DNA from: an uncultured Clostridium sp.
Lineage (GTDB): Bacteria; Bacillota_I; Bacilli_A; RF39; UBA660
Length of the DNA: 64,000 bases
Assembly: GCA_946414595.1 (NCBI GenBank)
Contig: CAMKPE010000008.1
Span: 1,152 to 65,151 of the forward strand
Direction of reading: 5' to 3'
A model generated the notes under the pieces. That model saw only the letters and a list, made by a program, of their open reading frames with translations, had not been told where the DNA came from and made no database searches. Every line of letters begins with the position of its first letter. Within the stretch, counting starts at the first letter, position 1. The position numbers were made by a program, and so were the translations under genes. Positions 856 to 37,534 of the stretch are shown here, one piece after another.

Positions 856-3735
856 CTATTTACATACTTGATGACATCTACATCCATACATTACGTGAGG
901 AGTTTGACATCTTTTTTCGTTATTACAACAGAAGTTTTTACATGAACCATCTGATCTACACCATGCTCCTTGATTTACATTACATGATGTAAGTGGTCTT
1001 GTTGACCAAGTATTTTCAACTTCCCATACCCAAGTACAACTTGCTGTACATTCTGATGATCCTGCTTCACTTTCTTCTCCTTCTGGACAGGCTACACAAC
1101 TAGCCCATCCTGACCCAGAGTATGTATTTGCTGGACAAGTACTACAACTATCTGATGAATTGTAATATGATTTATGTTTTGCTTTATAACTACCAGCGGA
1201 ACACCATGATGTGTCACTTCCTGTTGGGCTGTTTTTATATTTTCCATCTGGTACATTTATGTAACAACTTGTTGCAGCTCCTGCTTTGGCATCACTTGTA
1301 TATCCTGTTGGACATGCTGTTTGACTACATGCACCTTCTCCAGCATAATTTCCTGCTGTTGCATCAGAACATGAACTTGTTCCTCCATATGTTACATCAT
1401 GTTTTCCTTTATATGTTCCTGCTGCACACTTTGTTTCTGCACCTTTTGCATTTGCTACTTTATATCCACATGCTACTGATTTTACACAACCTGATTCAGC
1501 AGTTGTTCCTGCTCCTGCTTGGTATCCTGCTGGACATGCTGTACATGAACTTGTATTTCCATATGTTACTGTGTGAGCTCCTTTGTAAGTTCCTGTTCCG
1601 CATCCTTTCGCAGTTGTATCATTTGCTTTTTCAATGTAATTTCCTGCTGCAACGTTCTTTAGACATGCGCTTTGTGATGTCTTATTTGCCAATGCAGTTC
1701 CTTCTTGATATCCTGTTGGACATAAGCTACATGAACTTGTTTGACCATATGATACTACATGTGCAGTACTATAATATCCATCAGCACATACTTTCTTATC
1801 TTTTTTAGCTTCTTCTACAAAATATCCTGCAGCAACGTTCTTTTTACATTCTGCTTCAGTTCCAACTGGTGCACCATCTGTGTATCCTGTTGGACATGCT
1901 AAACAACTTGTACCTACAGAGTCTGTATATTCACCAGTTTTACATTGTTCATAAATTGCATACAATGTTACATCTGCACTTACAGTATGTGAAGTAATCT
2001 TTACTTTAGCATCTTTATCTGTATTCCATCCGATCATCTTCCATCCTGCTTTTCTTGCAGTTGGGTTTAAATCAGCTGATTCAGTTTCACGTTTAATTTC
2101 ACTTGTCTTTGTTGGACCTGTATCTCCACCATTTTTATCATAAGTTACTAAATAGTAATTTGAACTTGTTTGGAATGTATGTCCTGAGTGATCTGTTGCT
2201 TTCAAGTACCATGTTCCTGTTGAATCAACAGTACCAGTTCCAGTCCATTCACTTAAATAATTTAGGTTATCTCCACCTGAACTATTATTAGTTTTTCCAA
2301 AGTATACCTTAACTAACTTAGATGTAGCATCAGTACATTTTAATGATGCATGTCCAGTTATTGAACATGATGGTACTACTGTATCTTTTCTTACTTTAGT
2401 ACTACATGTTGCATAGTTTTGAGCTTTGTCTTCTACAAATCCATAGTACCAAATGAATTGACTTTCTTCAGTATGATTTAGTTCTAAGTTATTTGTTCTA
2501 CCTTGAGGTTTATATTCTTCATTACCTTTTCTTATTGCATTATATTCAATTCCACTCTTTGCTACTGCAATTGTGCTTTGTTGATCTTTTAATGTTCCAA
2601 AACTTATTTTAATATTTGAATGATACCATTCATTAGATCCAAGAGTACCTTCTTTTGTTAATGCACAAGTTGGTGCTGTTCTATCTATTCTAATTGTTAC
2701 TGCTGTTGTTACTTTACTAATGTTACCTTCATTGTCAACAACCCTGAATGCTATTTCTTCATTCATTTCTGTTCTATACTCTAAAGTACAATTTCCATTA
2801 CTATCTATATCATCACAAATTTTTTCCCATTTTCCACCTTTATTCCATTGGTATTGAGAAACTTTTTGTCCTGATTCTGAATAGAAATCAGATCCTGGAT
2901 GAAATACCATTGTTACTTCTTGAGCCCATTGTCCTGATGAATATGAAGTTGTAGCTGTTGTTTCAGTTACATCATCTTCTACTATTTTTGAAACATAAGT
3001 ATTTGTCTTTGTAAGAACTACTTCTGGTTCATTATTTTCATATACATGAACTCTTCTATCTACACTCTTATTATTATATTTATAAGTAACTGTATAAACA
3101 CCAACTTTTGATGTATCTACAACGTCAATGTTTTCTGGAAGTATTTGTGGAACTCCATCAACTCCATCTCCATCTATTATGTCTAGAACATTACCATTTC
3201 TATCTAATTTTGCTATTGATACAGATACTAATAATTTATCTCTTAATTTTTCTTGTGAAGTATTTTTGTAAACATAAGCATCATCAAAATGATCTATATC
3301 TGGTTGTATAGTTGATTGATCATCCCATGAGCTATCACAGTATTTATCTTCTAAATTTGAAAATGTATCTTCTGAACAAACTAAACAGGCATGATATATA
3401 TAATCATTTTTAGCAGCTTTTATTGCTATAACATAACTACTTCTATCACATTTATTTCCTGAATAATCTAAAATCTCATCGACATATGACCTTGATTCAA
3501 GAATTGATATAGGAACTTTTTGTGCTGCAAAAACAGAAGTTGGTCTATAGTTTCTATTATCTTCAAAGAATTCTTTTCCAGATTCAGTTAAAGTCCTTTC
3601 TAGAGAACTATAATAACTTTCTCTAAATTCTTGCATACTATTTGTATAAGTAATAATTGCTACTATAGAAATAATACCTAGTATAATTACTGCTGCTATT
3701 ATTTCTATTAAAGTAAATCCTTTTTTATTATTCAT
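856..3735 (-). CDS. Large modular protein with a prepilin-type (class III) N-terminus and cysteine-rich repeats, paralogue A (959 aa)
   Basis: N-terminus MNNKKG/FTLIEIIAAVIILGIISIVAI has G at -1, F at +1 and E at +5, followed by a hydrophobic helix. Next come Ig-like segments (GVYTVTYKY; VVDNEGNISKV..IDRTAPTC). One Listeria-Bacteroides-type repeat follows (YLVTYDKNGGD..GWKMIGWNT..VTLYAIYE). About 300 aa of ~50-aa Cys-rich repeats then follow (C..G.YKGAH.VTYG..SSC..CP.GY). The tail is Cys-dense (..CKNFCCNNEKRCQTPHVMYGCRCHQVCK). AGAGGTG lies just upstream of the ATG. Confidence 0.85.
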   Translation of the reverse strand: MNNKKGFTLIEIIAAVIILGIISIVAIITYTNSMQEFRESYYSSLERTLTESGKEFFEDNRNYRPTSVFAAQKVPISILESRSYVDEILDYSGNKCDRSSYVIAIKAAKNDYIYHACLVCSEDTFSNLEDKYCDSSWDDQSTIQPDIDHFDDAYVYKNTSQEKLRDKLLVSVSIAKLDRNGNVLDIIDGDGVDGVPQILPENIDVVDTSKVGVYTVTYKYNNKSVDRRVHVYENNEPEVVLTKTNTYVSKIVEDDVTETTATTSYSSGQWAQEVTMVFHPGSDFYSESGQKVSQYQWNKGGKWEKICDDIDSNGNCTLEYRTEMNEEIAFRVVDNEGNISKVTTAVTIRIDRTAPTCALTKEGTLGSNEWYHSNIKISFGTLKDQQSTIAVAKSGIEYNAIRKGNEEYKPQGRTNNLELNHTEESQFIWYYGFVEDKAQNYATCSTKVRKDTVVPSCSITGHASLKCTDATSKLVKVYFGKTNNSSGGDNLNYLSEWTGTGTVDSTGTWYLKATDHSGHTFQTSSNYYLVTYDKNGGDTGPTKTSEIKRETESADLNPTARKAGWKMIGWNTDKDAKVKITSHTVSADVTLYAIYEQCKTGEYTDSVGTSCLACPTGYTDGAPVGTEAECKKNVAAGYFVEEAKKDKKVCADGYYSTAHVVSYGQTSSCSLCPTGYQEGTALANKTSQSACLKNVAAGNYIEKANDTTAKGCGTGTYKGAHTVTYGNTSSCTACPAGYQAGAGTTAESGCVKSVACGYKVANAKGAETKCAAGTYKGKHDVTYGGTSSCSDATAGNYAGEGACSQTACPTGYTSDAKAGAATSCYINVPDGKYKNSPTGSDTSWCSAGSYKAKHKSYYNSSDSCSTCPANTYSGSGWASCVACPEGEESEAGSSECTASCTWVWEVENTWSTRPLTSCNVNQGAWCRSDGSCKNFCCNNEKRCQTPHVMYGCRCHQVCK

Positions 3736-3792: not shown

Positions 3793-3820
3793 ACAAAAAA
3801 ATAATGATATATAATCATTA
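3793..3820 (-). terminator. Intrinsic terminator after the 282-aa gene
   Basis: Stem taatgat/atcatta (3802-3808 / 3814-3820) overlaps the stop codon. A-run 3794-3801 gives a U-run on the minus strand. An extended -10-like TGTATAAT follows on the minus strand before the next gene. Confidence 0.5.
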
Positions 3821-4666
3821 CTTTTCATCTCTTATGATATATTGTTCTGTACTATACCAATAGTAGCTTCCATCGTCATTCTTTTTGTAAACATTTACAT
3901 ATGGTGTAGCAAATTCTCCATACTTTTCGAACAATTCATCTTCTGTGTATCCATGTATGTATCCTAAAGATTTTCCATTTTTTCTATTAAGAACATTTAT
4001 GTTAATACTACCTGATTCATCTTCTTCTTCATATACAAGATGTAGATGTTTAACATAAATATATAATATGTCATTTTTTTGTTCATATTTGTCTAATTTA
4101 ATAATATTTTTTTCATAACCAATTTCTGTTGTTGAATCTCCACAATAGCAATAATAGAATTCATTTTCTAAATAACAACTGCAATTGTCTTCATTAGAAA
4201 GAGTCTCTTTATCTTCTATTATGATGTCTTTTCCATACATGTTCTTTACTCTTTCAATAAACTTATCTTCTTTAAAATAGAAATTATTTGTAGTTACAAC
4301 TCCTTCTACATAGCAGTGGTCTTTAGAAAGAGTTCCTTCTTTCTTATCACATTCTTCTTTTGGAGTAGTATCCTTTTCACAACTTCCTTTTACATCATAT
4401 ATTCCCATAGTTGAATAGGCTGTATTTAATAATAACTGTGTTGGTACTTTATCTACTGTTACCATTTTTGTTTGAAAAACATTATATAAATCATCATTTA
4501 TAACTGGTATATAACTCAAATACTTTTCTACTTCTTCTTTTGTTACTTCTCTTTCTTTTTCCTTTTCATCCTCTTTATCACTAAATTTGATATTAGTGAA
4601 ACCATAGAATAATAATACAAGTGAAATTGCTATTAGTGATAATCCAATAATCTTATTTTTCTTCAT
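3818..4666 (-). CDS. Hypothetical N-terminally membrane-anchored, Cys-containing protein (282 aa)
   Basis: From the ORF track. It has the TM anchor IIGLSLIAISLVLLFYGF, a KE-rich linker and a Cys cluster (CSCYLENEFYYCYCG). RBS TAGGAGATT lies upstream. It is located between the two pilin-like paralogues. Confidence 0.65.
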   Translation of the reverse strand: MKKNKIIGLSLIAISLVLLFYGFTNIKFSDKEDEKEKEREVTKEEVEKYLSYIPVINDDLYNVFQTKMVTVDKVPTQLLLNTAYSTMGIYDVKGSCEKDTTPKEECDKKEGTLSKDHCYVEGVVTTNNFYFKEDKFIERVKNMYGKDIIIEDKETLSNEDNCSCYLENEFYYCYCGDSTTEIGYEKNIIKLDKYEQKNDILYIYVKHLHLVYEEEDESGSININVLNRKNGKSLGYIHGYTEDELFEKYGEFATPYVNVYKKNDDGSYYWYSTEQYIIRDEK

Positions 4667-4762: not shown

Positions 4763-7700
4763 TTAACAGTTTGATGTAGTTGAACAACATCCTGAACTAT
4801 TTACACCATATGAAACAGATTTACTTCCTGTTGAACCATTAGTGTATTCAACACTTATTGTTGCAGAAATACCATTTGTTCCATTTTCGTTTCTAAATCT
4901 TAATATTATTCTACTTCCATCAGTGAAGAAGTTACCATTTGTACCAATACCAGTTTCTCCATAAGTTCCAGTATTATTAGATGCTGTCTTAGAGAAATAT
5001 GTTTTCTTTTGCCATCCACATGTTCCATCTGATGATTGCCATATATTTGTTGTTTGAGTATGAGCACTTGGATTTGGGCTAAATGTAACTGTTACTTTTC
5101 TAAATGTATATCCACTAGGTGGGTCAATATAGAATGCTTGAATTACACATGGGCAAGTAGAACCTGTACAAGTCGTACAAACAGTACTCATTGCTTCATC
5201 AGTTTCAGCTGCTAGACATGATCCACTTGGATGTCCACGTAACCTACGTAATGAAACTAATGGTTCTTTATTACTTAATTCCCAATGCGCATATACTGTT
5301 AAGTTTCCAGAAACTGTTGTACTTGCTGTTACTTGAGTTCCACCTGATGCTGCAGTCCACCATCCCTTGAAATCATATCCACTTCTTGATGGTGTACATA
5401 ATTCTCCCCAAGTACTTGCATATGTTCCACTCTTAGAAGTACATCCACTTCCATTATTATTATTGTAAGTTAATGTATATGTATTTGGTGTACATGAACT
5501 TGTATTTCCATATGCTACATTATGAGCTGATGAATGATATCCTGCTGGACATGCTACTGGTCCCCCCTTAGGGGTTGGAACATGATTATTTTCTGGTACG
5601 CTCTTTATACATCCACCTTCTGAAGAAGTTCCTGCTCCACTTCTATATCCATCTGGACATTGAGTTTGACTACAAGCACCTTGTGCTGCATAATATCCAG
5701 TACTTGCTGCTGTACATGAACTCTTTGCTCCATATGTTACAGTATGAGTTGCGCTATAACTTCCTCCAGCACATACAGTTTCAGCACCTTTTGCTGTATC
5801 TACTTTATATCCACATGCTACTGATTTAACGCATTTTGCTTCTTCAGTTGTTCCTGCTCCTGCTTGATATCCTGCTGGACATGATGTACATGAACTTTTA
5901 TTTCCATAAGTTACATTATGTGCTCCTTTATAAGTTCCTGTTCCACAACCTGTTGCATTTGCGTCATTTGCATTCTTTACAAAATTTCCCGCTGGAACGT
6001 TCTTTAGACATGTACTTTGTGCTTTTTTATTATCTACCGCTGTTCCATTTTGGTATCCTGTTGGACATAAGTTACATGAACTTTTTGCACCATATGTAAC
6101 TGAATGAGCTTCTTTGTAATATCCATTTGCACATTCTTTTGCATTTGCATCTTTTTCCTTTTCTACAAAATATCCTGCAGAAACACTCTTTCTACATTCT
6201 GCTTCTGTTCCTACTGGTGCTCCATCTTTATATCCTGTTGGACAAGCTAAACAGCTTGTTCCTACAGAGTCTGTATATTCACCAGTTTTACATTGTTCAT
6301 AAATTGCGTACAATGTAACATCTGCACTTACAGTATGTGATGTAATTGCTTTAGTAGCAGTTTTATTTGTATTCCATCCGATCATCTTCCATCCTGCTTT
6401 TCTTGCAGTTGGATTTAAATCAGCTGTTTCAGTTTCACGTTTAATTTCACTTGTTTTTGTTGGACCTGTATCTCCACCATTTTTATCGTAAGATACTAGG
6501 TAATAATTTGAACTTGTTTGGAATGTATATCCTGAATGATCTGTTGCTTTTAAGTACCATGTTCCTGTTGAATCAACAGTACCAGTTTCAGACCATGTTG
6601 CTTGATAATCTAATGCAGTACCTTCTGCACTATCATTTTCTTTACCAAAGTATACTTTTACTAGTTTTGAAGTAGCATCTGAACAGTTAAGTGATGCATG
6701 TCCAGTAATTGAACATGATGGCACTACTGTATCTTTTCTTACTTTAGCACTACATGTTGCATAGTTTTGTGCTTTATCTTCAACAAATCCATAATACCAA
6801 ACATATTGACTATCATCTTTATGAGTTTGTTCTAAACTATTTGTTCTATTTGATTGAACATATTTTTCTGTTTCAACTCTTACTGAATTAAACTCAATTC
6901 CACTCTTTGCTACTGCAATTAAGCTTTGTTGATCTTTTAATGTATCAAATTTAATCTTTATATTTGAATGATACCAGTCATTAGATCCTGTTGTACCTTC
7001 TTTTGTTAATGTACATATTGGTGCTGTTCTATCTATTCTTACTATAACACTTGTTGTTACTTTACTGATATTACCTTCAGTATCAACAACTCTGAATGCT
7101 ATTTCTTCATTCATTTCTGTTCTATAGTCAATAGTACAACTTCCATCTGCTGCTATATCATCACAAATTTTTTCCCATTTACCGCCTTTGTTCCATTGGT
7201 ATTGAGAAACTTTTTGTCCTGACTCTGAGTAGAAATTAGATCCTGCTGTAAATGACAATCTAACTTCTTGAGCCCATTGTCCTGATGAATATGAAGTAGT
7301 CTTTGTTGTTTCTGAAACTGTATCTCTATCAATAGTTGCTGCATATTTATTAGTCTTTGTAATAACTACTTCTGGTTCACTATTTTCATATACATGAACT
7401 CTTCTATCTACACTCTTATTATTGTATTTATAAGTTACTGTGTATACTCCTACTTTTGATGTATCAACTACATCAATGTTTTCTGGAAGGATTTGTGGAA
7501 CTCCATCAATTCCATCTCCACTAATTCTATCAATTACGTTACCAGCTCTATCAAATTTAGTTATAGAAACTGTTGCAAGTAATTTTTCTCTTAATTTTTC
7601 TTGTGAAGTATTTTTATAAACATAAGCATCTTCAAATTGGTCAATGTCCGGTCTTACTGTAGATGCATCATCCCATGAACTATCACAATATTTATCTTCT

Positions 7701-8083
7701 AAATTTGAGAATGTGTCTTCTGAACATACTAGACAGGTATAGTAAATGTAATCATTTTTAGCAGCCTTAATTGCTATAACATAACTACTTCTATCACATC
7801 TATTTCCTGAATAGTCTACAACCTCATCAATATATGATTTTGATTCTAGAATAGAAACAGGCACCTTTTGTGCAGTAAACACTGATGTAGGTCTATAGTT
7901 TCTATTATCCTCAAAGAACTCTTTTCCTGATTCAGTTAATGTTCTTTCTAAAGAAGTATAATAACTATCTCTAAATTCTTGCATACTATTTGTATAAGTT
8001 ATTACTGCAATAATTGAAATGATACCTAATATAATTACTGCTGCAATAATTTCAATTAAAGTAAAACCTTTTTTATTATTCAT
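4763..8083 (-). CDS. Large modular protein with a prepilin-type N-terminus and cysteine-rich repeats, paralogue B (1106 aa)
   Basis: It has the same MNNKKG/FTLIEIIAAVIILGIISIIAV N-terminus as paralogue A. It is collinear with paralogue A, and roughly four-fifths identical by eye, over the first ~640 aa. It has more Cys-rich repeats and a second Listeria-Bacteroides-type repeat (TYTLTYNNNNG..GYDFKGWW..LTVYAHWE). The C-terminal domain is distinct and ends ..SGCCSTTSNC. RBS GGAGGT lies upstream, and the start is 12 nt after the AAA+ gene stop. Confidence 0.85.
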   Translation of the reverse strand: MNNKKGFTLIEIIAAVIILGIISIIAVITYTNSMQEFRDSYYTSLERTLTESGKEFFEDNRNYRPTSVFTAQKVPVSILESKSYIDEVVDYSGNRCDRSSYVIAIKAAKNDYIYYTCLVCSEDTFSNLEDKYCDSSWDDASTVRPDIDQFEDAYVYKNTSQEKLREKLLATVSITKFDRAGNVIDRISGDGIDGVPQILPENIDVVDTSKVGVYTVTYKYNNKSVDRRVHVYENSEPEVVITKTNKYAATIDRDTVSETTKTTSYSSGQWAQEVRLSFTAGSNFYSESGQKVSQYQWNKGGKWEKICDDIAADGSCTIDYRTEMNEEIAFRVVDTEGNISKVTTSVIVRIDRTAPICTLTKEGTTGSNDWYHSNIKIKFDTLKDQQSLIAVAKSGIEFNSVRVETEKYVQSNRTNSLEQTHKDDSQYVWYYGFVEDKAQNYATCSAKVRKDTVVPSCSITGHASLNCSDATSKLVKVYFGKENDSAEGTALDYQATWSETGTVDSTGTWYLKATDHSGYTFQTSSNYYLVSYDKNGGDTGPTKTSEIKRETETADLNPTARKAGWKMIGWNTNKTATKAITSHTVSADVTLYAIYEQCKTGEYTDSVGTSCLACPTGYKDGAPVGTEAECRKSVSAGYFVEKEKDANAKECANGYYKEAHSVTYGAKSSCNLCPTGYQNGTAVDNKKAQSTCLKNVPAGNFVKNANDANATGCGTGTYKGAHNVTYGNKSSCTSCPAGYQAGAGTTEEAKCVKSVACGYKVDTAKGAETVCAGGSYSATHTVTYGAKSSCTAASTGYYAAQGACSQTQCPDGYRSGAGTSSEGGCIKSVPENNHVPTPKGGPVACPAGYHSSAHNVAYGNTSSCTPNTYTLTYNNNNGSGCTSKSGTYASTWGELCTPSRSGYDFKGWWTAASGGTQVTASTTVSGNLTVYAHWELSNKEPLVSLRRLRGHPSGSCLAAETDEAMSTVCTTCTGSTCPCVIQAFYIDPPSGYTFRKVTVTFSPNPSAHTQTTNIWQSSDGTCGWQKKTYFSKTASNNTGTYGETGIGTNGNFFTDGSRIILRFRNENGTNGISATISVEYTNGSTGSKSVSYGVNSSGCCSTTSNC

Positions 8084-8095
8084 AATATACCTCCG

Positions 8096-10921
8096 TTATT
8101 CATAGAAATCATCAAAGCCACCGTCTTCGTCTTCTTTTCCGTCTTCTAGATTAAGATCGAACTGTGGTTTATTCTCTGAAACTGGTATTCCCATATATTT
8201 ATTTGAGTCTTCCTCTTTTATTTTACCGCTATTCAAATCGTTTAGATTAACAAAATCTCCACTTTTCATATCTTCATAGTAATCTTTGTTACTTGTTGGT
8301 ACTGCACTATTAGCTGCAGGAGCAATTGTATTCTCTTCTTTTTTAGCTGCTTGCTCAAGAATATCATTTTGGAAGTTTCCATCATCCTGTTGTGTTTGAT
8401 CACTATCATCTATGAATGTCCAATTTTTACCACTTGATGTTCCACCTTGATCAGGCATTCCTGATGTAGCAGGCATTCCTGATGTAGCAGGCATTCCATC
8501 AATAATTCCTGCTATTGGACTCATTCCATCATCGTAATTATTCATTGGGCTTGTTTGTAAGAAGTTTCCTTCTTCTTCAGGGATTTCTCTTACATCACTA
8601 ATAACTGTTTTAATATTTGATAGATTATTTAATTTATCAAATGTTGGGAATTCATCAACAATTTTTCCATTTTTAATTCTCATATTATCAGTAATTAGCT
8701 GTCCAAATATATCTACTCCATTATTACTTGGTTCATCCATCATTCCACCGCTGTTGTACATTGGCGCTCCAAATAAACTTTCACTTGGATATCCTGATTC
8801 ATTTGGATTGATATCTAAGAATGTCTTATTTGGCATACTATTACTTGGAATACCCATTGGATTATATAAATCTGGAACATTTTGATATGGGTCTTCTTTT
8901 GGACCATTATCATCATACATTGGTGCTCCAAAAATTGTTTCTACTGGCTCTTCTTGTTGTCTTGGTTCTTCAACATTTAAGAATCGATTATTTTGTGGAC
9001 CATTAGGCATATATCCATTATTCTGTGGTGGCATGTTTTGGTAACCTTGTTGTGGCATTCCACCATTTTGATATCGTCCATTTCCTCTGTTTGGATATTG
9101 TTGTGGTGGTCTTGGACCATTAGGCATATATCCATTATTCTGTGGTGGCATGTTTTGGTAACCTTGTTGTGGCATTCCACCATTTTGATATTGTCCATTT
9201 CCTCTATTTGGATATTGTCCTTGTGGTCTTGGACCATTTTGGTAATATCCATTTCCCTGTGGTGGCATGTTTTGATAATTTCCTTGAGGTCCTCCGTTAT
9301 ATCCATTCATGTTTTGATTGTTTGGATAATAACCATTATTTTGTGGAGGCATATTTGGATAATTTCCACCTTGGTTATTGTATTGTCTATTTTGCGGTAG
9401 GAAATCATTTGCAGGATTATTACTTTGATCATCTTCATCTTTTGAAAAGAAATTGCTGTATTTATCAAAATTTTGAGTGCTTATATCTTGTCTTACAGGT
9501 CTTCTTCTATCTTCTTGCATTATATTTCCTCCCTTCTTATGATTCTTTCTTGAAGAATTATAAGTATTATCTTGTGTATACTCACTTAATTCTTCTTCTA
9601 ATGTACTTTGAATTGGTTTACCAAGAAGTATATTATCGCTTACTCCCGGTTTTATTTCTTCTGTTACAACATATTTTGTTGGCATCTTTACTTTTTGTGG
9701 TTCATCAGGTTTAATAACCTCTAAGTCACCAGATAGTAACATGTCATCTAATTTGCTAGCATCTTGTGATCTGTTTATTTTTTCTTTTAATCCTTGAGAT
9801 ACTGCTGTTGAACCAACTATATCAGTATTTGAAATAATTGATTTAACAGGTCTATTTATTTTTTCTATATTTCTATCAATTATGCTTGGTTTTTTATCTA
9901 ACTTATCAACTTCACCTGTTTGTTCTGGTTCTGCTTGATTAGGAAGCCCTTCTTGTTCAGCCCTTGTTGGAGTATTATCTTGTCTCCATGCTTCAATTGG
10001 CTTCTCACCTTTTTCCTCTAACATAATGTCATTAAATGTTTGATCAAAATTTGGTAATTCTTTTTTAATAACATCTGGATAAATGTTTTTAGAATTCTCT
10101 ATTGCCTTTCTAACATCAAATATATCCATATATGGACGGTTATCATAAACCGTATATGAGAATGCTTGTTTAAGTAAAGTTAAACATACATCTGGATATC
10201 TTGATCCTAGTGCATATACTCTTTTGTATTCACTAGTTATATCTACTAGGAAACTCATTATTCTTTCTTGAATAAATGGAGTATATTTCATTTTTCTTCC
10301 AGTTTGTTTTTCAAACTTAGGAAGTGTTCCCATCATAATCTTTATTGTTTCATCTCTACTTGGTTCAGGAACTTCAACTTTTTGAAAACGTCTTGTAAAC
10401 GCTTTATCACGAAGAATATATCTTTCATACTCTTCTGTAGTTGTGGCACCAATTACTTTAATACTTCCACGTCCTAATCCCTCTTTGAAGATATTAGCGA
10501 AGTCAAGTGAAGAAGTATCAGTTGCTCCAATTAACATGTGAATTTCATCTATAAATAAAATTAATTTTTCTTTTGTTTTAAGTTCATCAATCATTTTTTG
10601 AACTTTACTTTCTCCACTAGGCATTGTACCTAATAGTGAAGCAGTTTTTATATTTACTATTGAGTATCCTTTTAAGGCGTCTGGCACGTCATCTTTTTGT
10701 AAGCGGTATGCAAGACCTTCAACAATAGCAGTTTTACCTATACCTGGCTTACCAATCAAAATGGCTGATTTTTCAGGAGTAAGAAGTATAAGAATAAGTT
10801 GTCTTATTTGCTCGTCACGACCAATAGCTGGATTTGTGATGTATTCGTCTTTAGTGATATCAGTACCATAACGCTCTAAGACACTAAAATTGGCTTCGAA
10901 TTCTAACGTTTTCTCATCCAT
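8096..10921 (-). CDS. ClpA/ClpB-family D1-type AAA+ ATPase (single AAA+ module) with a long Q/N/G/P/Y-rich low-complexity region and an acidic C-terminus (941 aa)
   Basis: Motifs match Clp D1 domains: IGRDEQIRQLILIL, Walker A GKPGIGKTAIVEGLAYRL, Walker B LILFIDEIHMLIGA, IGATTTEEYERYILRDKAFTRRFQKVEVPEPS. No second AAA+ module is present. Residues ~500-640 are almost exclusively N, Q, G, P, Y, M and R. Confidence 0.8.
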   Translation of the reverse strand: MDEKTLEFEANFSVLERYGTDITKDEYITNPAIGRDEQIRQLILILLTPEKSAILIGKPGIGKTAIVEGLAYRLQKDDVPDALKGYSIVNIKTASLLGTMPSGESKVQKMIDELKTKEKLILFIDEIHMLIGATDTSSLDFANIFKEGLGRGSIKVIGATTTEEYERYILRDKAFTRRFQKVEVPEPSRDETIKIMMGTLPKFEKQTGRKMKYTPFIQERIMSFLVDITSEYKRVYALGSRYPDVCLTLLKQAFSYTVYDNRPYMDIFDVRKAIENSKNIYPDVIKKELPNFDQTFNDIMLEEKGEKPIEAWRQDNTPTRAEQEGLPNQAEPEQTGEVDKLDKKPSIIDRNIEKINRPVKSIISNTDIVGSTAVSQGLKEKINRSQDASKLDDMLLSGDLEVIKPDEPQKVKMPTKYVVTEEIKPGVSDNILLGKPIQSTLEEELSEYTQDNTYNSSRKNHKKGGNIMQEDRRRPVRQDISTQNFDKYSNFFSKDEDDQSNNPANDFLPQNRQYNNQGGNYPNMPPQNNGYYPNNQNMNGYNGGPQGNYQNMPPQGNGYYQNGPRPQGQYPNRGNGQYQNGGMPQQGYQNMPPQNNGYMPNGPRPPQQYPNRGNGRYQNGGMPQQGYQNMPPQNNGYMPNGPQNNRFLNVEEPRQQEEPVETIFGAPMYDDNGPKEDPYQNVPDLYNPMGIPSNSMPNKTFLDINPNESGYPSESLFGAPMYNSGGMMDEPSNNGVDIFGQLITDNMRIKNGKIVDEFPTFDKLNNLSNIKTVISDVREIPEEEGNFLQTSPMNNYDDGMSPIAGIIDGMPATSGMPATSGMPDQGGTSSGKNWTFIDDSDQTQQDDGNFQNDILEQAAKKEENTIAPAANSAVPTSNKDYYEDMKSGDFVNLNDLNSGKIKEEDSNKYMGIPVSENKPQFDLNLEDGKEDEDGGFDDFYE
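8985..9440 (-). repeat. Coding low-complexity / tandem repeat region (Q/N-rich) inside the AAA+ gene
   Basis: Two 117-bp (39-aa) tandem units lie at 8997-9113 and 9114-9230. Their first ~78 nt are identical (ggaccattaggcatatatccattattctgtggtggcatgttttggtaaccttgttgtggcattccaccattttgata). More degenerate copies lie upstream. A separate 18-bp repeat (GMPATS x2.5) lies at ~8452-8500. Confidence 0.85.
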
Positions 10922-11002
10922 TTGCCAAGCCTCCTATCATAAATCATTATACCATTTTAAAATAATTAAATAAAGAGAAAAAGAACTATTTTTAGTTCTT
11001 TT

Positions 11003-11704
11003 TTAATTACAAGATATTCCAAGTCCAAGATAATATTCTTTCAACTTGCTAAGTAATATTTTGTTGCCTTCCATGAAAGAAGCCATTTCTGGTGAGTCAC
11101 TTAGCATTTTTGATATATCAACTTTAGTGTAATCAATTTCAACATATGAAATTATAGACAAATCGTGTCTTTCAATTTTAACTGTATAACCACCATATTT
11201 CTCTTTTGCACCTTCATACGTTTCTTTTAATAATTCTTCATATGCATTTGCATATTCAGTTGATTCTGTATCGTATTTCTCATCAAGTATTAGTGTAGTT
11301 ACGTATTTACCATCATGTTTTGCTGTATATTTAAGTGTTACTTTTGTTCCAGTTGCTTGACTTGAAGAAGTGCAAACCATTGTCTTTGATCCACCATTAT
11401 CAACAATTGTATTTGTGTTATTGTCTGAATTACCGTTTTTGTTTCCAGAATCATCACCTTTTCCGTTAAATACAAAGAACCATAGTAGTAATCCTACTCC
11501 AACTAAAACTATTACAGAAATAATAGAAATAATTGCAATAGTTGCTCCTTTACCTTTCTTTGGCATTTGTGGTTGATATACTGGCGCAGGTTGAACTTGT
11601 GGTTGTACTTCTGGTTGAGGTTGTACGTTTGCCATGCTCTCTCCACATGCATCACAAAATTTTGCAGTATCAACTAATTCGTTTCCACATTTTGGACACT
11701 TCAT
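11003..11704 (-). CDS. Zinc-ribbon / TM / extracellular-domain protein (possibly YehR/DUF1307-like ectodomain)
   Basis: MKCPKCGNELVDTAKFCDACG is a zinc ribbon. It is followed by a Q/P-rich linker, the TM segment ATIAIISIISVIVLVGVGLLLWFFVF and a ~130-aa C-terminal domain. I moved the start to ATG 11704, which has AGGAG 8 nt upstream. The ORF track starts at 11728. Confidence 0.65.
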   Translation of the reverse strand: MKCPKCGNELVDTAKFCDACGESMANVQPQPEVQPQVQPAPVYQPQMPKKGKGATIAIISIISVIVLVGVGLLLWFFVFNGKGDDSGNKNGNSDNNTNTIVDNGGSKTMVCTSSSQATGTKVTLKYTAKHDGKYVTTLILDEKYDTESTEYANAYEELLKETYEGAKEKYGGYTVKIERHDLSIISYVEIDYTKVDISKMLSDSPEMASFMEGNKILLSKLKEYYLGLGISCN

Positions 11705-11766
11705 TTTATCATCTCCTATTATCATCATTATATCAAAACAAAAAGAAATAGAAAAGTTATTATTTT

Positions 11767-23054: not shown

Positions 23055-26000
23055 TTATTTAATAATAATATATTTATAAACCTCTCCAATATATGTATTG
23101 TTGTCATATAGGGAGAATACAATCTTGTAAGTACCTGATCTTAAGTTGTCTTTTAAATATAATACCTGTGACATAGTAGCTTGTGGATCATCGAATACTA
23201 AGTATAATTTTTCTACATTTGTATCACTAAAATTATTAGTAAAGAAATCTTTAAAGTCTACTAAGTGATATATACTTGAATATACTTCATCGTAGTCTCT
23301 TCTATATAGAGATACTCTGATATTTGGATTTAATAATCCACTTGAGAATTGGAAGTTAAATGCCATTGCATTAGTACCATTTTGTGTTTCTCCAGTTGTT
23401 TTATCCACAATTAAGTCTTCCGAATCAACGACTGCTTTTAATCCATAAATAGTGTTTTTAACTGTAAATGGAATTGTAACGCTATCAGATGATGTTAACC
23501 CATAATAGATTCCATCTGGAGATCCAAATGACTCGATTAACATCTTATAATTTCCTGATGCTAAGTTACTTCCTTCAGTGTTAATTGTGATGTTTGATGA
23601 TACGTTTGCAATACGTTCTGCAACGTTAATTCTTACCGTTCCATCAAATCTAGGATAATATGTTGTATTACCAAGAGTATAGGAAATTCCCATTATACTT
23701 GGACCATTTACAACGTTATCATTAGAGTCTAGGATTGATATTTTAATACCTGATCTATAATCATAGAAGTTTGTATCTATAACTGGGTTATTATTAACTT
23801 TTTGTTGAACGAAGTTTGTCGTAACATTTAACATTACTTCTTCTCCTATGTATACTTCATCAGTCGACATCGTTCCATCAACATCAATAATTGAATCTTT
23901 ATTAGCGTATAAGTTATAGAACAATTGCTGTTGCTGGACACCAATTACCGATAGAATTATTTCATCATCAGAACTTCGAAGCTCTAACAACAAGTATTTT
24001 TCTATGGCATCTTCTTCTATACCTGCTTCTTTAAAGTCTACAATGAAGATAAACTCTTCTTCTGCAATACCGAGGTCATCATCGTAATATAACAGGTTCT
24101 TCGTTGCATCATTATAATGGTTATTTGGATTATCACTACCCATTTTAATGAATTTAGAAAGTGGATATGCGACATCTCCATTAGCTTGTAATTCTGCTTG
24201 TTTATTTACAAAGTCATCATGAGTTACAACATAGTAATAATATTCAGGAGTTGTTCCACTTAATAAGTCAATCATTGTAATCTTTGTATTTTCTGGGAAG
24301 TTATAAGTAGATGCTAGAACTCTATGATATCCTTCTCTATAAATTGTTTCATCTTTTTCTACGAATAATGAATAGTATGTTGTAAAGGCACTCTTTGAAG
24401 TTATATTAACTACACCTGGTGCAAACATTTCATATACTTTTCCGGTTGTAATTGTTCCTTCATAGTCATCTGTCGTATATAACGCTCTTGATATATTAAC
24501 ATTAATATTAATTCTTTTTACTTCGTTATTTAAATCATCAATTGGAATAATTGCTACCATTGAAATGGTTGCAGTTCCCATGCTTCCAGCTGTCTCCAAA
24601 TTCTTAGAGTGGTATAGATAGAATAACAGTGTTGGAACTGTATTTGAGTTTTCACTCTTATAATTAATTGTTCCATCAAAGTAAGATTCATTAGTTAAGA
24701 ATGTTGTCTTACCTATTGTTAACCATCCATTATCACTACTCTTCATTACAAGAGCCATTCTATTATCAGCAAGTTCATGAGTCTCAGCAATTCTTGGTAT
24801 TTCATCTTTTCCAACAAGTTCAACTTCACTATTTAAGTCATTATAGTTGAATCCTAAAACAGAGAACGTTGTATTAGCTTGTGAGAAGTTAATTAATGGT
24901 AACTCATAAGTTCCAAGTGTAGAATATTTAGATGCTGTTAAATCTATTTCTATAGAAGTAACTTGATCTCCAACAACCCACATATAATAGTTAGAATCTT
25001 CTGGTGTTGGAATTATGTATCCAACAAATATTTTATCTGTCTCAGTTTTATTTGGATAATTTGTATAGAATCCATCTTCTTCATAATTATGGTTTGTTTT
25101 ATGAAGTCCTAGTACATAACTACCTTTAGTAAAGTGTACTATTTCTGAAGATGGTACTGTAGTAGTATTTGTATAGTCTGTATTATACATAGCTGGATAT
25201 ACTTTACCATTTCTATCATAAGTAAACATTCCAAAGAATGTCATTCCACTAACTTCTCCGTATGCTGTTATGTTTTCGTTTGTTGCTATGTTAATATTCT
25301 TTCCTTCATAAACATATAATTTGTTATTAACGTTTCTTGATTGTATTCCATCTTCATCTATTTCTACTGCTTCTTTAACAACAGTATTTCCAGTTTTTAA
25401 TCCACTAGAGAATTTCTTAACTAAGTTAGTACCGTTCTTTAAGTATATAACTGAGTTATTAACTAATGCGATTTCATCCAATCTACTTAATGAGAACAAT
25501 ACATCAGAGTATTCGTTTGTTCTGTCTGTTGCTCCAATAAGTTCGATTACTGAATTCTCAAGAGTTACTGTAGATGCTCTTTGAATTGATACATTTGTTT
25601 TGTAATTTGCTTCAGTTCCATAGTTTTTAATTAAGATGTTACTATAACCACTTGTACTTGAAGCATTACCACTTCCAAATATAGATCCGTGTATATCAAA
25701 TACATTATGGCTATTAGCATCTATATTAATTGTTATTCCTGTCGTAACACTTATGAATGAGAAGTCATAAATTTCTGATCCTGAAGCATTGGCTTCTCCT
25801 CCACCAAATACTGTTCCAGTAATATCAATATCACCTTTTGTTAATGTATTTTCTGTTACTACATCCTTACCAATATTTACATTTACTGTTCCGTAAAGTA
25901 CTGAAGTATTAGCTCCTCCATATACATTACCTCCACAAGTAAGTCCTGCAATATTTACTAAACTTGTTGAGTTATTAGCCTCAGGTGTTCCTGTTGCAGC

Positions 26001-29000
26001 GGCATTTCCTCCACCAAATACGTGGTTTGCAACTGACGTTGTTCCACCAACATTTAATACTGTATTTCCATGTACTATGGCAGTAGTTCCGTTTCCTCCT
26101 GCAAATAAGTTTGCTCCTAAAGTACTATTTTGAACAAATACATCTGTATCATGTCCAACTATTCCTAGGTTTCCTCCACCGAAGACATTTCCACTTATTG
26201 TCGCATTAACAATTCTTAATACTGAATTATTATCAACTGCAGCTTGGTTTCCTCCTCCATAGACTTGACCATTAATAATTGCATTTTCAATATTTGTATT
26301 TGTTCCTGTTGTATCAGCGTAGTTTCCTCCACCATAGACATAAGTTACTTGCCCTGCTTTTAGATCTACGTTAGCGCTTATTGTTCTTCCTCCACGGTTA
26401 TTACCACCGAATATTTTATTAACAATTACACTGCTGTTATTTGCTGGTATACTTACATGGCTTTCTTGAACTGCTCCAGCCATATTAGATCCACCATAAA
26501 CATTTGTAATTCTTGATACACCTTTTAAAATTACATTTGCAGTATCTACAGAAGCTTGGTTTCCTCCACCATAGATATTAGAAATTGTAGATGCTGTTTT
26601 ATTAATTGTTACATTACTTGTTGTAGAGTCAGCATAATTTCCTCCTCCATAAATATCTGTAACATTTCCATCATTTACAGTGACATGAGTTGTTGTTGTA
26701 GTTCCACCTTGATTATTACCACCATAAATATTTGTAGTTGTTCCTCCTGCTACTATGATATTAGAAACAGGAACTGTACCACTTTGATTTGATCCTCCAT
26801 AAATTGAACCAACTGTGGCATTATTTTGATTAACACTCGTACTTACTGTTATTCCGGCTTCATTTCCTCCACCATAAACATCAGTTATATTTCCACTATT
26901 TAAGTTAATTATTGTTGTGTCTGTTTCTGCAACATTTCCTCCACCAAAGATAGTAGCAATTGTTCCTCCACCTGTTGTTATCTTTGTTGTATTAGTTTTT
27001 CCACCTAAGTTGTTACCACCATAGATTGTTGTGGCATTACCACTTGATGTTGTTATATTAGATTCTACAACTGTACCACTTTGATTTGATCCACCAAATA
27101 TCGTTGTTACAGTTGATCCCTGTAATGTTACATTTGTTTTATTTGTAATACCTGCTTGGTTTCCTCCACCATATACATTTGCAATAGTTGCACCATTTAA
27201 AGTAAGGTTTGTTGTATCTGTTTCTGCAACATTTCCTCCACCATAAATAGTATCTATATTTCCACCATTTATAGTTAAGTTTGAAGTTAGAGTTTTACCT
27301 CCTAAATTATTTCCTCCATAGATATTTGTTGCAGTTCCGCTTGATGTTGTTATGTATGATGCTGTAACATTTCCTGAGTTATTACTTCCTCCAAAAAGGT
27401 TTGTTACTGTTGCACCATTTAATATTGTATTAGTACTTGATGTAACACCTGCTTGGTTTCCTCCTGCATAAGCATTTGGAATTGTTCCTCCATTTAGGTA
27501 TAAATGTGTAGTTCCAGTTGTTGCAACATTTCCTCCACCATAAACAGCGCTCAATGTTCCACCTGTTATTGTTACATTAGAAGTTGTTGTTGTTCCTCCT
27601 AAGTTATTACCACCATATATAGTTGTAGCAGAGCCACTGCTTGAAGTTACATTTGCTGTTGTAACTGTACCACTTTCATTAGAACCACCATATATTGTAG
27701 TAGCATTAGCTCCTTGTAAATGAACATTAGTAGTTGTAGCATTAGCAAGGTTTCCTCCACCATAAACATTAGTTATAGTACCGCCATTTAAATATACATG
27801 GCTTGTATTTATTGGTGCATAATTTCCTCCACCAAATACATTGGTAGTATTTCCACCATTTATATAAACATTTATATTTCCATTTGGAGTTCCCTTAACA
27901 TCATTTCCTCCAAATACATCATTAATAGTTCCATTATTAACTGTTACAGTTACGTTTCCTCTAACATATGGAGTTGTTGAATTATCACCTTGTCCTCCAC
28001 CAAAAACAGAACCAGATATACTACCATTATTAATTGTTATAGAAGTATTACCACTAGCACTACCATTTGATGAATTGCTGTTAACAATTCCTAAAGCACT
28101 TCCTCCATAAATATTTCCTTGAATAATTGGAGTATTAGTAATACCATTTCTACCTATAGTTATATCAATATTATTAGATACAAATGTTGGAGCACCTTTA
28201 CCTCCACCATAAACGTTTCCAGTAATTGTACCACCAATAATATCCATATCAACTGATCCATACACTTCACCTGTAGTATTAGATCCTCCGTAGACATTTC
28301 CAATTGTTCCACCACTTATATCAATATCAATTACACTGCTTGATTTATATTCATTTTTACTAAATCCTGCTGATTTAGATCCACCATATACATTGCCTAT
28401 TGTTCCACTTAATATTTCTATTTTAGCAGTTGATGATTGTGTAGTTTGTGTTCCTGTACTACCAAAGTTTCCTCCACCATATACACCATCAGTTATAGTT
28501 GCTCCATTGATAATTACATGTGAATTTTTAACAGATCCTCTTGTTGGATATCCATCAGCACCTCCACCAGCTCCAAATACAGAACCAGCTTCAACATCAT
28601 TTATAGAACCTGTTTGATCACCAACTACTGCAGTACCTCCAACATATACAATGGTATCTCCATCTATAATACCTATATTATTTCCTGTTCCTCCATTACT
28701 ATTTGATCCACCTAAAACACTATAGTGGATAACTCCTCCAGAAATATTAATAATTCTATTTCCGTATGTTGTATTTTGAGTAGCTCCTCCATAAATCTGC
28801 CTTACGTCTCCCCCACTCATACCAATATAAACCGCATTTGCTCCATTGTTATTATTATATCTATAACCAGATCCCCCAAGAATTATGTTAATTGAACCAC
28901 CTTCAATTTTAATTCCATTAGTTGCATGTGTAGTAACTGAAGTACCTCTTCCGCTTATGTAAGCTCCAGCACCATCAGGATCATTACTTGGTGTACCATC

Positions 29001-31003: not shown

Positions 31004-32011
31004 CTATGATGGATTAACTGTTAGTTGTAAATCAAATTGAATATCATCATATGAGGCATCATTTTCACAATCTACATCTTGTCCTTCAATCCACATGTAT
31101 ATTCTCATTTTTGTGATTCCACTTTCTAATGTAAATACAGGTACATATGCTGTGAAATCATTTCTTGTGTAATAATCAATATTTACTGTTTTAAATTTTG
31201 TTGGAAAATATGCTCCTTTAGCATTTCTTAGTAATACGTTATCTGCTTTTGCTATTTCCTCTATTATTCCATCATATATTATTCTATTTGCATTTTCTGT
31301 TTGTGTTATTATTCCATACAAGTTGTTAGCGTGGTTAACTGCTGCTGTTGTATGAATATCATAGTTTGGTTCCCAAGAGTAAACTGTGTTATTTGTTGCT
31401 CCTTTCAAACTTTGTATTTCACTTAAATCAGTTCCTGCTGGAACAGTTCCCTCATTTACAAATACTATTCTTGTAGCATTTGCAATTCCTTTTCCTGTTT
31501 CGTTATTCATATAAGTTACTTTTGAATTACTTGTTAAGTATAATTGTGTATCACTACTTACTTTAAAGAACAAATCAAATACGATAAATTTTCCATCATT
31601 TGATGATCCATTACCTTCTGTTTCAATACTTCTTGTACTTGTTAGTATGTAATCACCAGTTGCATTGTTATCTGTTGTTCCGTAATACATTTTTAGGTAT
31701 CCAGTTGTTGTATCAACTTCAAGTCCACTTGATACTGGCTCTAATGTATAAGGTATTTGGTTAACACTAGTTGGGTAAGTAGTCGCATGTACGTTTGTTA
31801 TATCTTCTGGTGTAATAATTGATTTCCAATTTGTACCATCAGCAGATATTTCTATACCTCCACTTGCTGCTACGTGAACGTTGATTGTATTTACTGTTAC
31901 TATTCTGTTTGATGTGAACCATGCATAAGTTGTTGTTGAAAGCATTGTTAGTGTAAACAAAAATAGTACCAATAAGTAAATGCGTCTTAGTTTTCTATTC
32001 ATTACTATCAT
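31004..32011 (-). CDS. SipW-type-signal exported protein, ~335-360 aa, paralogue of 39545-40576
   Basis: The signal ends ..LSTTTYAWFTSN. Shared blocks with the paralogue are GIEISADGTNWKSI, NQIPYTLEPVS, GKFIVFDLFFKV, WEPNYDIHTTAAVNHA and GITKMRIYMWIEGQDVDCEN. The ORF is open to 32092. I favour ATG 32011, which has GGTGG 9 nt upstream; 32002 and 32020 are also possible. Confidence 0.8.
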   Translation of the reverse strand: MIVMNRKLRRIYLLVLFLFTLTMLSTTTYAWFTSNRIVTVNTINVHVAASGGIEISADGTNWKSIITPEDITNVHATTYPTSVNQIPYTLEPVSSGLEVDTTTGYLKMYYGTTDNNATGDYILTSTRSIETEGNGSSNDGKFIVFDLFFKVSSDTQLYLTSNSKVTYMNNETGKGIANATRIVFVNEGTVPAGTDLSEIQSLKGATNNTVYSWEPNYDIHTTAAVNHANNLYGIITQTENANRIIYDGIIEEIAKADNVLLRNAKGAYFPTKFKTVNIDYYTRNDFTAYVPVFTLESGITKMRIYMWIEGQDVDCENDASYDDIQFDLQLTVNPS

Positions 32012-32786
32012 TTTGTTCATCCACCTTTTCTTCTTCGCTTTCCTTACTTTCTTCAATCTTTTGTAATTCGTTTGGATTAATTCTTTCTTCACGGATATTC
32101 ATATGCATTTTTATATCTCCACCAATAAGTGAATTAACAGTATCAGGATCATCTCCTTCAATCCATACGACTATTGTTATTCTATCTGGTGAGTTTGGAG
32201 CAAGTGTTTTTCTTTCTTCCAAAACAGCAATATATTCTTCGCTTCTTCTATTTCCTTCGTAGAAAGGTTTAGTATCAGGTTCAGCTTCACCTGTATCAGC
32301 ATTCTTTTTAGCATATACAGTAGGTTCACCATTTAAGTAGATCATTATTCTTATTCCTTCATCTACTCTTTTAATAACGTCATCAATTACTACTTCATAC
32401 CAATAGTCTACTGCAACATTACTAATGTTTTCTACATAGAATGTATAAGCTATATAGTTTTGTCCATTATGTGAACCTTCTTTTTCTGTATCTATATCAG
32501 CTGGAATCCATTTAATAGAAATGTTATCCATATAAGGCATTTCATCAGCATATAATTTTCTTTTAATGTCTCTATCTTCTTTAAAGTCGTAGATAACTAA
32601 ACTACTATCACGAGTTGCATCTTTATCAAGTTGAATTACAAATCTACCACCTTTAAAAATAACAGTTAGGATAACGAAAATTGTTGTTAACACACCCAAA
32701 AGAACTAAACTAGCTATTTTAGCCACTTTAGCTGTCTTTTTTCTCTTATTTAATTTCTCAGCAGTAAGCAATACATCTTTAGCCAT
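31995..32786 (-). CDS. Membrane-anchored exported protein related to the locus subunits (263 aa)
   Basis: TM anchor IASLVLLGVLTTIFVILTVIF. The C-terminal block IVVWIEGDDPDTVNSLIGGDIKMHM resembles YMWIEGQDVDCEN of the ~360-aa paralogues. The tail is acidic. The start is moved to MAKDVLL (ATG 32786), which is preceded by AGGAG. Confidence 0.7.
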   Translation of the reverse strand: MAKDVLLTAEKLNKRKKTAKVAKIASLVLLGVLTTIFVILTVIFKGGRFVIQLDKDATRDSSLVIYDFKEDRDIKRKLYADEMPYMDNISIKWIPADIDTEKEGSHNGQNYIAYTFYVENISNVAVDYWYEVVIDDVIKRVDEGIRIMIYLNGEPTVYAKKNADTGEAEPDTKPFYEGNRRSEEYIAVLEERKTLAPNSPDRITIVVWIEGDDPDTVNSLIGGDIKMHMNIREERINPNELQKIEESKESEEEKVDEQNDSNE

Positions 32787-32909
32787 ATTAGTCTCCTGTT
32801 TTCTTATCCTATATACGTAAAATTTTATCATATTTTGCCTATTTTTACAACAATTTGGCTTTAAAAATAATCTTTATGATATACTTAATTTAAAGTAGGA
32901 GGTGTTTGT

Positions 32910-33488: not shown

Positions 33489-33516
33489 AAGATACACAAA
33501 TGTGTATCTTTTTTTA
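33488..33516. terminator. Bidirectional intrinsic terminator between convergent genes
   Basis: Stem aaagatacaca / tgtgtatcttt with a 2-nt loop, a T-run downstream and an A-rich run upstream. Confidence 0.7.
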
Positions 33517-34137: not shown

Positions 34138-34139
34138 AA

Positions 34140-34766: not shown

Positions 34767-34773
34767 ATTACCT

Positions 34774-37524: not shown

Positions 37525-37534
37525 ACTTCACCAC

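Follow-up and report, generated by a model that had tools for sequence, protein, structure and literature searches.

We found that the gene at positions 8096–10921 on the minus strand of a 64,000-nucleotide (nt) stretch of contig CAMKPE010000008.1 from an uncultured Clostridium sp. (this whole stretch is referred to below as the window) encodes what is, judged by its sequence, a single-module AAA+ protein derived from the D1 module of Clp/Hsp100 ATPases. The D1-type module is predicted to be competent for ATP hydrolysis and is extremely conserved across a family of relatives, and it is joined to a disordered tail that carries a conserved acidic-aromatic motif at its far end. We propose, with moderate confidence, that the protein works as a tethered-motif ATPase hub, composed of the Clp-derived module, a variable disordered tether and the conserved acidic-aromatic tip.

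A Single Clp-Type D1 Module

The open reading frame (ORF) begins with ATG and forms a complete coding sequence of 941 amino acids (aa) plus stop, and its full-length homologues share 50–80% identity with it. Every ATPase motif listed in an earlier note on this DNA (the original prediction) was located in the translation. In Pfam, the protein matches the generic AAA family alone (aa 54–179). The NCBIfam models of ClpB, ClpA and ClpV align only with aa 7–214, to model positions ~148–373, which correspond to D1, and the scores stay far below every curated cut-off (ClpB, 175 bits with a cut-off of 1232; ClpA, 174 with 993; ClpV, 161 with 885). All 44 strong matches in a sequence search of the PDB are D1 modules of ClpB, Hsp104, ClpC, ClpA or ClpE, and a Foldseek search with the folded part recovered the D1 of Hsp104, ClpC, ClpB and ClpA. 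The AlphaFold2 (AF2) model, built on a 65-sequence alignment, contains a confident AAA+ large domain with a helical lid that spans aa 1 to ~310 (predicted local distance difference test score, pLDDT, of 80–90); beyond this point pLDDT is below 50, apart from a helix at 388–396, a hairpin at 747–756 and helices at 881–906. The D1 match of the original prediction holds, while its module boundary of ~330 aa has to be moved to near aa 310, where the modelled fold ends.

Other Clp modules are missing. Neither Clp_N, AAA_2 nor D2-small was matched in the Pfam and NCBIfam scans of the 941-aa protein, whose first residues align near residue 148 of ClpB. The tripeptide [ILVM]G[FL], a possible ClpP-docking loop, occurs nowhere in the protein, and the AF2 model shows no M-domain coiled-coil insertion, its lid helices being continuous. 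Pfam, NCBIfam, PDB and AF2 thus support the originally predicted single Clp-D1 module devoid of N-domain, D2 and ClpP loop. In turn, the catalytic signatures are retained: G57, G62, K63 and T64 of Walker A are invariant across the family (K58 and I61 nearly so), as are Walker B D125/E126, the sensor-1 residues T160/T161 (GATT) and the arginine fingers R177/R178 (RRF). Against the PADLOC models, the protein gave nothing beyond weak matches of a generic AAA kind, to IetA and TRIP13 (E 1e-5 to 1e-7 over 70–90 residues), and a role as an anti-phage defence ATPase was rejected on account of their generic nature.

A Pore Loop Without Tyrosine

The pore-1 loop of the protein, GTMPSGE, aligns with GAKYRGE of ClpB and bears a proline at the tyrosine position (KYR to MPS). 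It is also three residues shorter than that of ClpB, as seen from gaps of one and two residues in the alignment. Family-wide, the loop reads G-T-[ML]-P-[ST]-G-E-S-K-V-Q-K, in which G98, P101, G103 and E104 are invariant. The two-ring ClpB of the same bacterial lineage, to whose D1 the D1-only protein is 44% identical, retains GAKYRGEFEERLK, as ClpB does generally. In ClpA, the KYR tyrosine of D1 is required for substrate engagement, and the Y259A substitution abolishes or hinders degradation (PMC8666677). Since this tyrosine is replaced by proline throughout the family, a classical threading motor is not predicted, and disaggregase activity is doubtful. The disaggregase-like motor put forward in the original prediction finds no support here, given that the exchange is invariant in the family while the ClpB of the lineage keeps its tyrosine.

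A Variable Tether With a Conserved Tip

Two AF2 runs predict a disordered tail. Among orthologues its length ranges from ~30 to ~770 aa, and its composition may be K/E-rich (P0066), S/T/N-rich or, as here, of the N/Q/G/P/Y type. In approximately half of the species the tail is N-terminal and not C-terminal (42 of the 120 best database matches and 40 of 76 classified loci; the entries P0079–P0120 and the loci L048, L054 and L059 are among them). Genes of both kinds share one syntenic position, beside cotJC/cotJB, and the N-tailed and C-tailed forms are a domain-order permutation of an orthologue.

What persists through these changes is an acidic-aromatic motif, which stands at the tail end farthest from the ATPase. 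It takes the form DLNLE-(acidic)-[YF]FDDF[FY][DE] in C-tailed proteins, D[DE]IE[IL]L in short C-tails, and NRFIFSDDYYD or KFFMPDNFYDE in N-tailed proteins. We detected it in all 28 long or medium C-tails and in 30 of the 33 long or medium N-tails (58/61 together), with L923, D937, D938 and F939 nearly invariant. The C-tailed group further shares islands in the linker (W312, a helix with D392/L395/L396, E422/L432 and Y454) as well as the distal motifs LFGAPMY, which is present twice here, DIFGQLI..NMRIKNGKIVDEFP and F.N..DLNSGK. The original prediction read FGAPMYD twice; this is correct for the first copy (aa 664), and the second reads FGAPMYN (aa 717).

When the distal 294 aa were compared with 1.84 billion representative proteins, no match was found outside the family; each of the 15 matches obtained belongs to the family or is a short unidentified sequence, presumably a fragment of a gene, and the idea of tail modules common to other proteins was dropped, as none emerged among these representatives. 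Because the motif occurs at either terminus, it is not read via a free C-terminal carboxylate, which excludes strict docking of the HbYX or SSB-Ct type. Accordingly, two candidates were discarded: HbYX-like docking of the C-terminal FYE to the proteasome, as the motif has no constant C-terminal placement (its variants include FFED, FYDQ and FFEEE) and is N-terminal in half of the family, and, on the same grounds, an SSB-Ct-like, carboxylate-dependent tip. Docking of the tip in cis on the AAA module is equally unsupported, the tip being disordered in both AF2 runs. The family amounts to a natural experiment on disordered tethers, in that one ATPase accepts tails with 30–770 aa, whatever their composition and terminus, as long as the tip is retained.

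Distribution and Conservation

Relatives were sought among 5.8 billion proteins, and the thousands that were returned bear a single database name, "AAA family ATPase [Bacilli bacterium]". In one-genome-per-species collections at least 427 genomes encode a relative. All 80 genomes among the matches listed are metagenome-assembled genomes (MAGs) or assemblies of uncultured isolates from gut or rumen, labeled Bacilli, Tenericutes or Erysipelotrichaceae, with Candidatus Scybalousia, Pelethosoma and Faecenecus among the names; one of them is a closed chromosome of 1.31 Mb, OZ006981.1, that carries the family gene. The exact ATPase sequence of the window occurs in bovine, sheep and goat gut metagenome runs. 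The family seems restricted to uncultured small-genome Bacilli of gut and rumen. A literature search found no publication on this D1-only family.

Across the family the AAA module is 66–96% identical. In one genome compared with the window it shows 88–90% identity, where ribosomal protein S4 reaches 85% and tyrosyl-tRNA synthetase (TyrRS) 62%. In over 400 species of uncultured gut and rumen bacteria, an AAA module about as conserved as a ribosomal protein goes by a generic name only.

Proposed Mechanism

We envisage that the D1-type module forms oligomers in the manner of other Clp D1 rings, and that the oligomer would constitute an ATP-driven remodelling or switch hub. The tethered motif would recruit this hub to a putative conserved partner, or recruit the partner to the hub, with the tether setting reach and valency. 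Such a logic would parallel that of SSB proteins, with their core, disordered linker and acidic tip (PMC7145534, PMC7584906). Identifying the partner of the tip would tell what this core gene does in a large group of uncultured bacteria.

Several points weigh against this proposal. In neither of the two AF2 runs is the terminal motif docked on its own AAA module. A pore loop with Met-Pro could still hold on to substrate, which makes unfoldase activity conceivable. No conserved operon partner that names a pathway emerged from 79 orthologous loci, and the recurrent cotJB/cotJC neighbours are often convergent. The organisms are uncultured, and essentiality is suggested by conservation only. As for expression, small fragments in two rumen metatranscriptomes match the AAA-coding part, but this evidence is thin, and carry-over of DNA is possible.

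Transcription Unit and Genetic Context

The gene upstream of the ATPase gene is separated from it by a terminator-like hairpin with an 11-bp stem and a U-run (−9.5 kcal/mol, z −3.5; none of 200 shuffles folds as well). The hairpin is followed by the extended −10 element TGGTATAAT and by a ribosome-binding site (RBS), for which reason the ATPase gene appears to head its own, apparently vegetative, transcription unit of the sigma-A type. TGnTATAAT is found at about −33 (counted from ATG to the first base of the element) in most orthologous loci of both tail architectures, and the (A)GGAGG RBS is likewise conserved among orthologues; both the sequence and its conservation suggest that TGGTATAAT acts as a promoter. 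The upstream gene itself (11003–11728, minus strand) codes for a protein with a zinc ribbon, a P/Q-rich linker, a transmembrane helix and a DUF1307-like domain, and precedes the ATPase gene in some relatives only (L001, L008 and L013).

Immediately downstream, cotJC (Mn_catalase) is found in 48 of the 79 loci and cotJB in 44, in convergent orientation relative to the ATPase gene in 26 cases and co-directional in 12–16. This neighbourhood is typical for N-tailed (34/40) and long C-tailed genes (9/12) and rare for short or medium C-tailed ones (4/24), which often lie beside glmS and an N-domain-less two-ring ClpB gene. In 23 loci an ABC exporter pair is located upstream. The recurrence of cotJ in both orientations and with both tail architectures would fit a sporulation or spore-coat morphogenetic ATPase, whose module powers assembly and whose rapidly evolving Tyr/Gln/Gly-rich tail is built into the coat layers, or organises them, together with CotJ proteins. 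Surface and coat proteins are typically fast-evolving and of low complexity, which counts for the same explanation. However, the promoter is of the vegetative sigma-A extended −10 type and not of the sigma-E or sigma-K type, convergent genes are not co-transcribed, the short- and mid-tailed lineages mostly do without cotJ and sit by glmS or clpB, and inherited gene order could account for the adjacency. Sporulation capacity is mixed among related uncultured orders (PMC10868615). Altogether, we consider a function in the spore coat unlikely.

In seven loci of the short-tailed lineage (L034, L036, L038, L039, L041, L042 and L043) the D1-only gene lies 2–4 kb from the ClpB gene, often with glmS between them. 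This ClpB (e.g., L038:9326–11455, minus strand) has ~709 aa and scores 1128 bits to TIGR03346, just under the cut-off. The possibility that the D1-only protein is the sole or replacement Hsp100 of a reduced genome was rejected, since a canonical ClpB coexists with it in these loci at least. The linkage could also point to a regulatory pseudo-subunit, a D1-only protein that joins or docks on the N-domain-less ClpB and supplies a disordered adaptor tail; the 44% identity of the two D1 modules and the N-tailed forms, which place the tail where the N-domain is missing, are in line with it. Yet clpB linkage is seen in one sub-lineage only, the same 44% identity and the altered pore loop disfavour mixed rings, and nothing further speaks in its favour, so that we regard a pseudo-subunit role as very doubtful.

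The Pilin-Like Neighbour

A giant prepilin-like gene follows the ATPase gene in the window. The junction reads TAA-CGGAGGTATATT-ATG, which confirms the 12-nt spacing reported earlier, and the gap contains GGAGG. We found no terminator-like site on the coding strand downstream of the ATPase gene, and metagenome contigs of four runs span the 8083/8096 junction; taken together with the RBS-bearing gap, this makes read-through into the pilin-like gene, and with it co-transcription of the two genes in this species, likely. No fragment in the two rumen metatranscriptomes crosses the junction.

The original prediction had gone further and proposed a functional link, in which the ATPase is a disaggregase or extraction motor with a self-associating prion-like tail and acts as a chaperone for the adjacent Cys-rich pilin-like proteins. 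The RBS-bearing gap and the lack of a terminator are compatible with it, as are the adjacency retained in four metagenome strains and in a sister species, the intact D1 catalytic motifs and a tail that reaches at least 30 Q/N per 80 aa. Nevertheless, the adjacency of ATPase and pilin-like gene is confined to 1 of 13 close loci, that of the sister species (module 95% identical), which has one pilin cassette against two in the window, and no pilin cluster recurs near the ATPase gene across the 79 wider loci, which led us to reject the pilin link as a family feature. The ATPase gene has its own conserved promoter, and Q/N-rich tails exist without a pilin neighbour (e.g., L003). The protein itself has lost the pore-loop tyrosine and lacks D2. 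Pfam found no T2SSE/PilB-type domain in it, hence it is not a pilus ATPase, and a scan of window ORFs revealed no pilus machinery. Moreover, pilins are exported membrane proteins, whereas the ATPase has no membrane or secretion feature. The chaperone model is thereby largely refuted by synteny, and we hold it to be very improbable. In this lineage, the pilin-like cassette seems to have been inserted between the ATPase gene and the neighbours it usually has, and the cassette probably rides on the ATPase transcript.

The window holds two paralogous giant prepilin-like genes, at 856–3735 (minus strand, 959 aa) and 4763–8083 (minus strand, 1106 aa), and both products combine an N_methyl leader with Big_3, Cys-rich CPxGY modules and the Listeria-Bacteroides repeat. 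Downstream of each gene lies a small ORF for a membrane-anchored product (124–837 and 3818–4666, minus strand), and these two ORFs are mutually unrelated. In two metagenomes the prepilin leader region (8007–8113) shows a depth spike of 60–80x against ~7–9x, with loose ends at 8043–8085. The spike and the many loose ends suggest that the leader is joined to many flanks, i.e., that it belongs to many paralogues or to a mobile cassette.

The N/Q/G/P/Y Block and Its Repeats

The tether of the window protein contains a block of 141 aa (aa 506–646) that consists of N (23%), Q (18%), G (18%), P (17%), Y (11%), M (6%) and R (5%). The Q/N content peaks at 35 per 80 aa near aa 501–511, against a background of 9.5% in the other window ORFs (binomial P ~1e-15). 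The block has a net charge of +6, and the next 295 residues one of −38. Tandem Repeats Finder (TRF) detected a 117-bp unit in 2.4 copies at 8996–9278 (92% matches) and an 18-bp unit in 2.6 copies at 8452–8497, so that both composition and TRF agree with the Q/N-rich, repeat-built tail that had been predicted. The 117-bp repeats proposed at the outset are likewise real; their identical ~78 nt turned out to be a 79-nt run in a shifted register, and full units are 88% identical. The only other window ORF near this Q/N density is that of a 323-aa membrane protein at 52180–53151 (plus strand), whose C-terminal 80 aa are Q/N/V/E-rich (30 Q/N per 80 aa).

Repeat number varies between strains, which answers the comparison suggested in the original prediction: the contig of metagenome run X4 lacks exactly one 117-nt unit, and one 18-nt unit is absent in runs X3 and X4, in frame in both instances. 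Variants of the sister species have 993, 979 and 951 aa and differ by indels of 42 and 28 aa within the same block. In contrast to the synteny, which is kept, the Q/N region is rare: at least 30 Q/N per 80 aa are reached in 5 of 75 species-level orthologues, and a QNGPY block is present in 3 of the 75, which is the combination that the original prediction itself had named as refuting it. This rarity, the 17% proline and the copy-number variation indicate a lineage-specific linker expansion and not a conserved prion domain; the best reading is that the tether was recently enlarged here by tandem repeats that expanded in frame. The block may serve as a caution in work on bacterial prion-like domains, in that a high Q/N density can arise through recent repeat expansion of a linker and be unconserved.

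A Tyr/Arg-bearing, proline-rich and positively charged block beside a strongly acidic segment would fit a flexible spacer, or weak multivalent association of the condensate type, more readily than it would an amyloid prion. Condensation is known to be driven by SSB linkers with a comparable composition (PMC7584906), and in E. coli one SSB linker behaves like a prion domain (PMC11175392, PMC10523482); by analogy, self-association of the block is possible. It could be imagined that the expanded linker adds ATP-controlled condensate or prion-like self-assembly, with a propensity tuned by copy number, to this tip-governed class without a pore tyrosine. We find such an addition quite improbable; if true, repeat copy number would give heterogeneity at the level of strains or cells in an otherwise housekeeping machine. 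A genuine prion domain, i.e., a heritable amyloid switch like Cb-Rho/Ch-SSB that inactivates or retargets the ATPase, is extremely unlikely: a Q/N density extreme for this genome, polymorphic repeats and the precedents of bacterial Rho and the SSB linker (PMC11175392, PMC10523482) are outweighed by proline-free stretches of never more than 12 aa, by a PAPA-like score that, because of the proline content, peaks at −0.025 against the usual threshold of 0.05 (a rough value, indicative only), by the lack of conservation of the block and by ~300 flanking aa of strongly negative charge.

Features of the Locus

Table 1. Coordinates of the D1-only ATPase gene, its parts and the adjoining elements in the window
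Feature	Positions	Strand	Basis
Coding sequence of the D1-only ATPase	8096..10921	-	ORF call and full-length homologues
D1-type AAA+ module with lid, aa 1–310	9992..10921	-	NCBIfam, Pfam, PDB, AF2, Foldseek
Walker A GKPGIGKT, aa 57–64	10730..10753	-	Family alignment columns
Pore-1-loop equivalent GTMPSGE, aa 98–104, without the KYR tyrosine	10610..10630	-	Alignment to ClpB GAKYRGE
Walker B ILFIDE, aa 121–126	10544..10561	-	D125/E126 invariant
Arginine-finger pair R177/R178 in AFTRRFQ	10388..10393	-	Alignment to ClpB AFERRFQ; invariant in family
Proximal disordered linker with conserved islands, aa 311–505	9407..9991	-	AF2 pLDDT and conserved columns
N/Q/G/P/Y low-complexity block, aa 506–646, net charge +6	8984..9406	-	Composition
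117-bp (39-aa) tandem repeat, 2.4 copies	8996..9278	-	TRF
Acidic disordered distal tail, aa 647–941, net charge −38	8099..8983	-	Composition, AF2, conserved motifs
18-nt repeat encoding (GMPATS)x2.6	8452..8497	-	TRF
Terminal motif DLNLE-(acidic)-GFDDFYE, aa 922–941	8099..8158	-	Orthologue conservation
Terminator-like hairpin with U-run, 3' of the upstream zinc-ribbon gene	10978..11003	-	Folding against shuffles
Extended −10 element TGGTATAAT, 24 nt upstream of the ATPase ATG	10946..10954	-	Sequence and orthologues
RBS AGGAGG, 8 nt before the ATPase ATG	10930..10935	-	Sequence and orthologues
12-nt gap CGGAGGTATATT with RBS of the pilin-like gene	8084..8095	-	Sequence
Giant prepilin-like gene, 1106 aa, downstream of the ATPase gene	4763..8083	-	N_methyl, Big_3, Flg_new domains

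Elsewhere in the window, a 2644-aa ORF without a Pfam match is located at 23055–30989 (minus strand), and a homologue of it (59% over 1338 aa) lies near the ATPase locus in L012. The adjacent region at 31004–42980 (minus strand) comprises about ten ORFs without a Pfam match, save for one DUF2357 protein (34774–35961), and may be an accessory or defence island amid housekeeping DNA (ffh, ftsY, ezrA, rpsD, tyrS). A gene for a HerA/DUF87-type ATPase (44398–46152, minus strand) is positioned between ftsY and ffh, an arrangement kept in the MAGs L003 and L004.

Comparison With Known Systems

The closest known systems are the class I Clp/Hsp100 proteins (ClpB, Hsp104, ClpC and ClpA), with which the D1-only protein shares the D1 module at 40–44% identity and the same fold, including the lid, as well as Walker A, Walker B, sensor-1 and the RR arginine fingers. 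In contrast to them, it is devoid of the N-domain, M-domain, D2 and ClpP loop, its pore loop is changed from KYR to MPS and shortened, and a disordered tail of 30–770 aa stands in place of the missing domains. By number of modules, N-domain, KYR motif, M-domain or ClpP loop and score cut-offs, it fails most tests of membership in ClpA, ClpB or ClpC. The family hence breaks the rules of its parent family, having one ring module and no aromatic pore loop. ClpI of Actinomycetota is likewise a lineage-restricted relative of Clp-type unfoldases that was recognised from sequence (PMC10149685). To go by its published description, ClpI forms a distinct class of Clp unfoldases (PMC10149685), while the family described here is single-module and lacks the aromatic pore loop.

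Rho, with its prion domain in C. botulinum and its phase separation in Bacteroides, offers another parallel, being a hexameric housekeeping ATPase which in gut bacteria has gained a lineage-specific Q/N-rich low-complexity region (PMC11175392). It differs in its RecA-type fold, as opposed to AAA+. The corresponding region of the D1-only protein, known from sequence, is in turn proline-rich and repeat-polymorphic and lies within a longer tether with conserved motifs.

Bacterial SSB is a mechanistic analogue and not a homologue. It too combines a conserved oligomeric core with a hypervariable G/Q/P/N-rich low-complexity linker and a conserved acidic-hydrophobic tip, the oligomeric state of the ATPase being presumed from related rings; SSB-type linkers drive condensation, and the linker of C. 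hominis SSB behaves as one of prion type (PMC7584906, PMC7145534, PMC11175392). The core of SSB is, however, an OB-fold and not an AAA+ ATPase, and in about half of the orthologues of the ATPase family the tip is N-terminal. Seen beside these systems, the D1-only proteins constitute a previously uncharacterised, Clp-derived single-module family with an unusual architectural plasticity.

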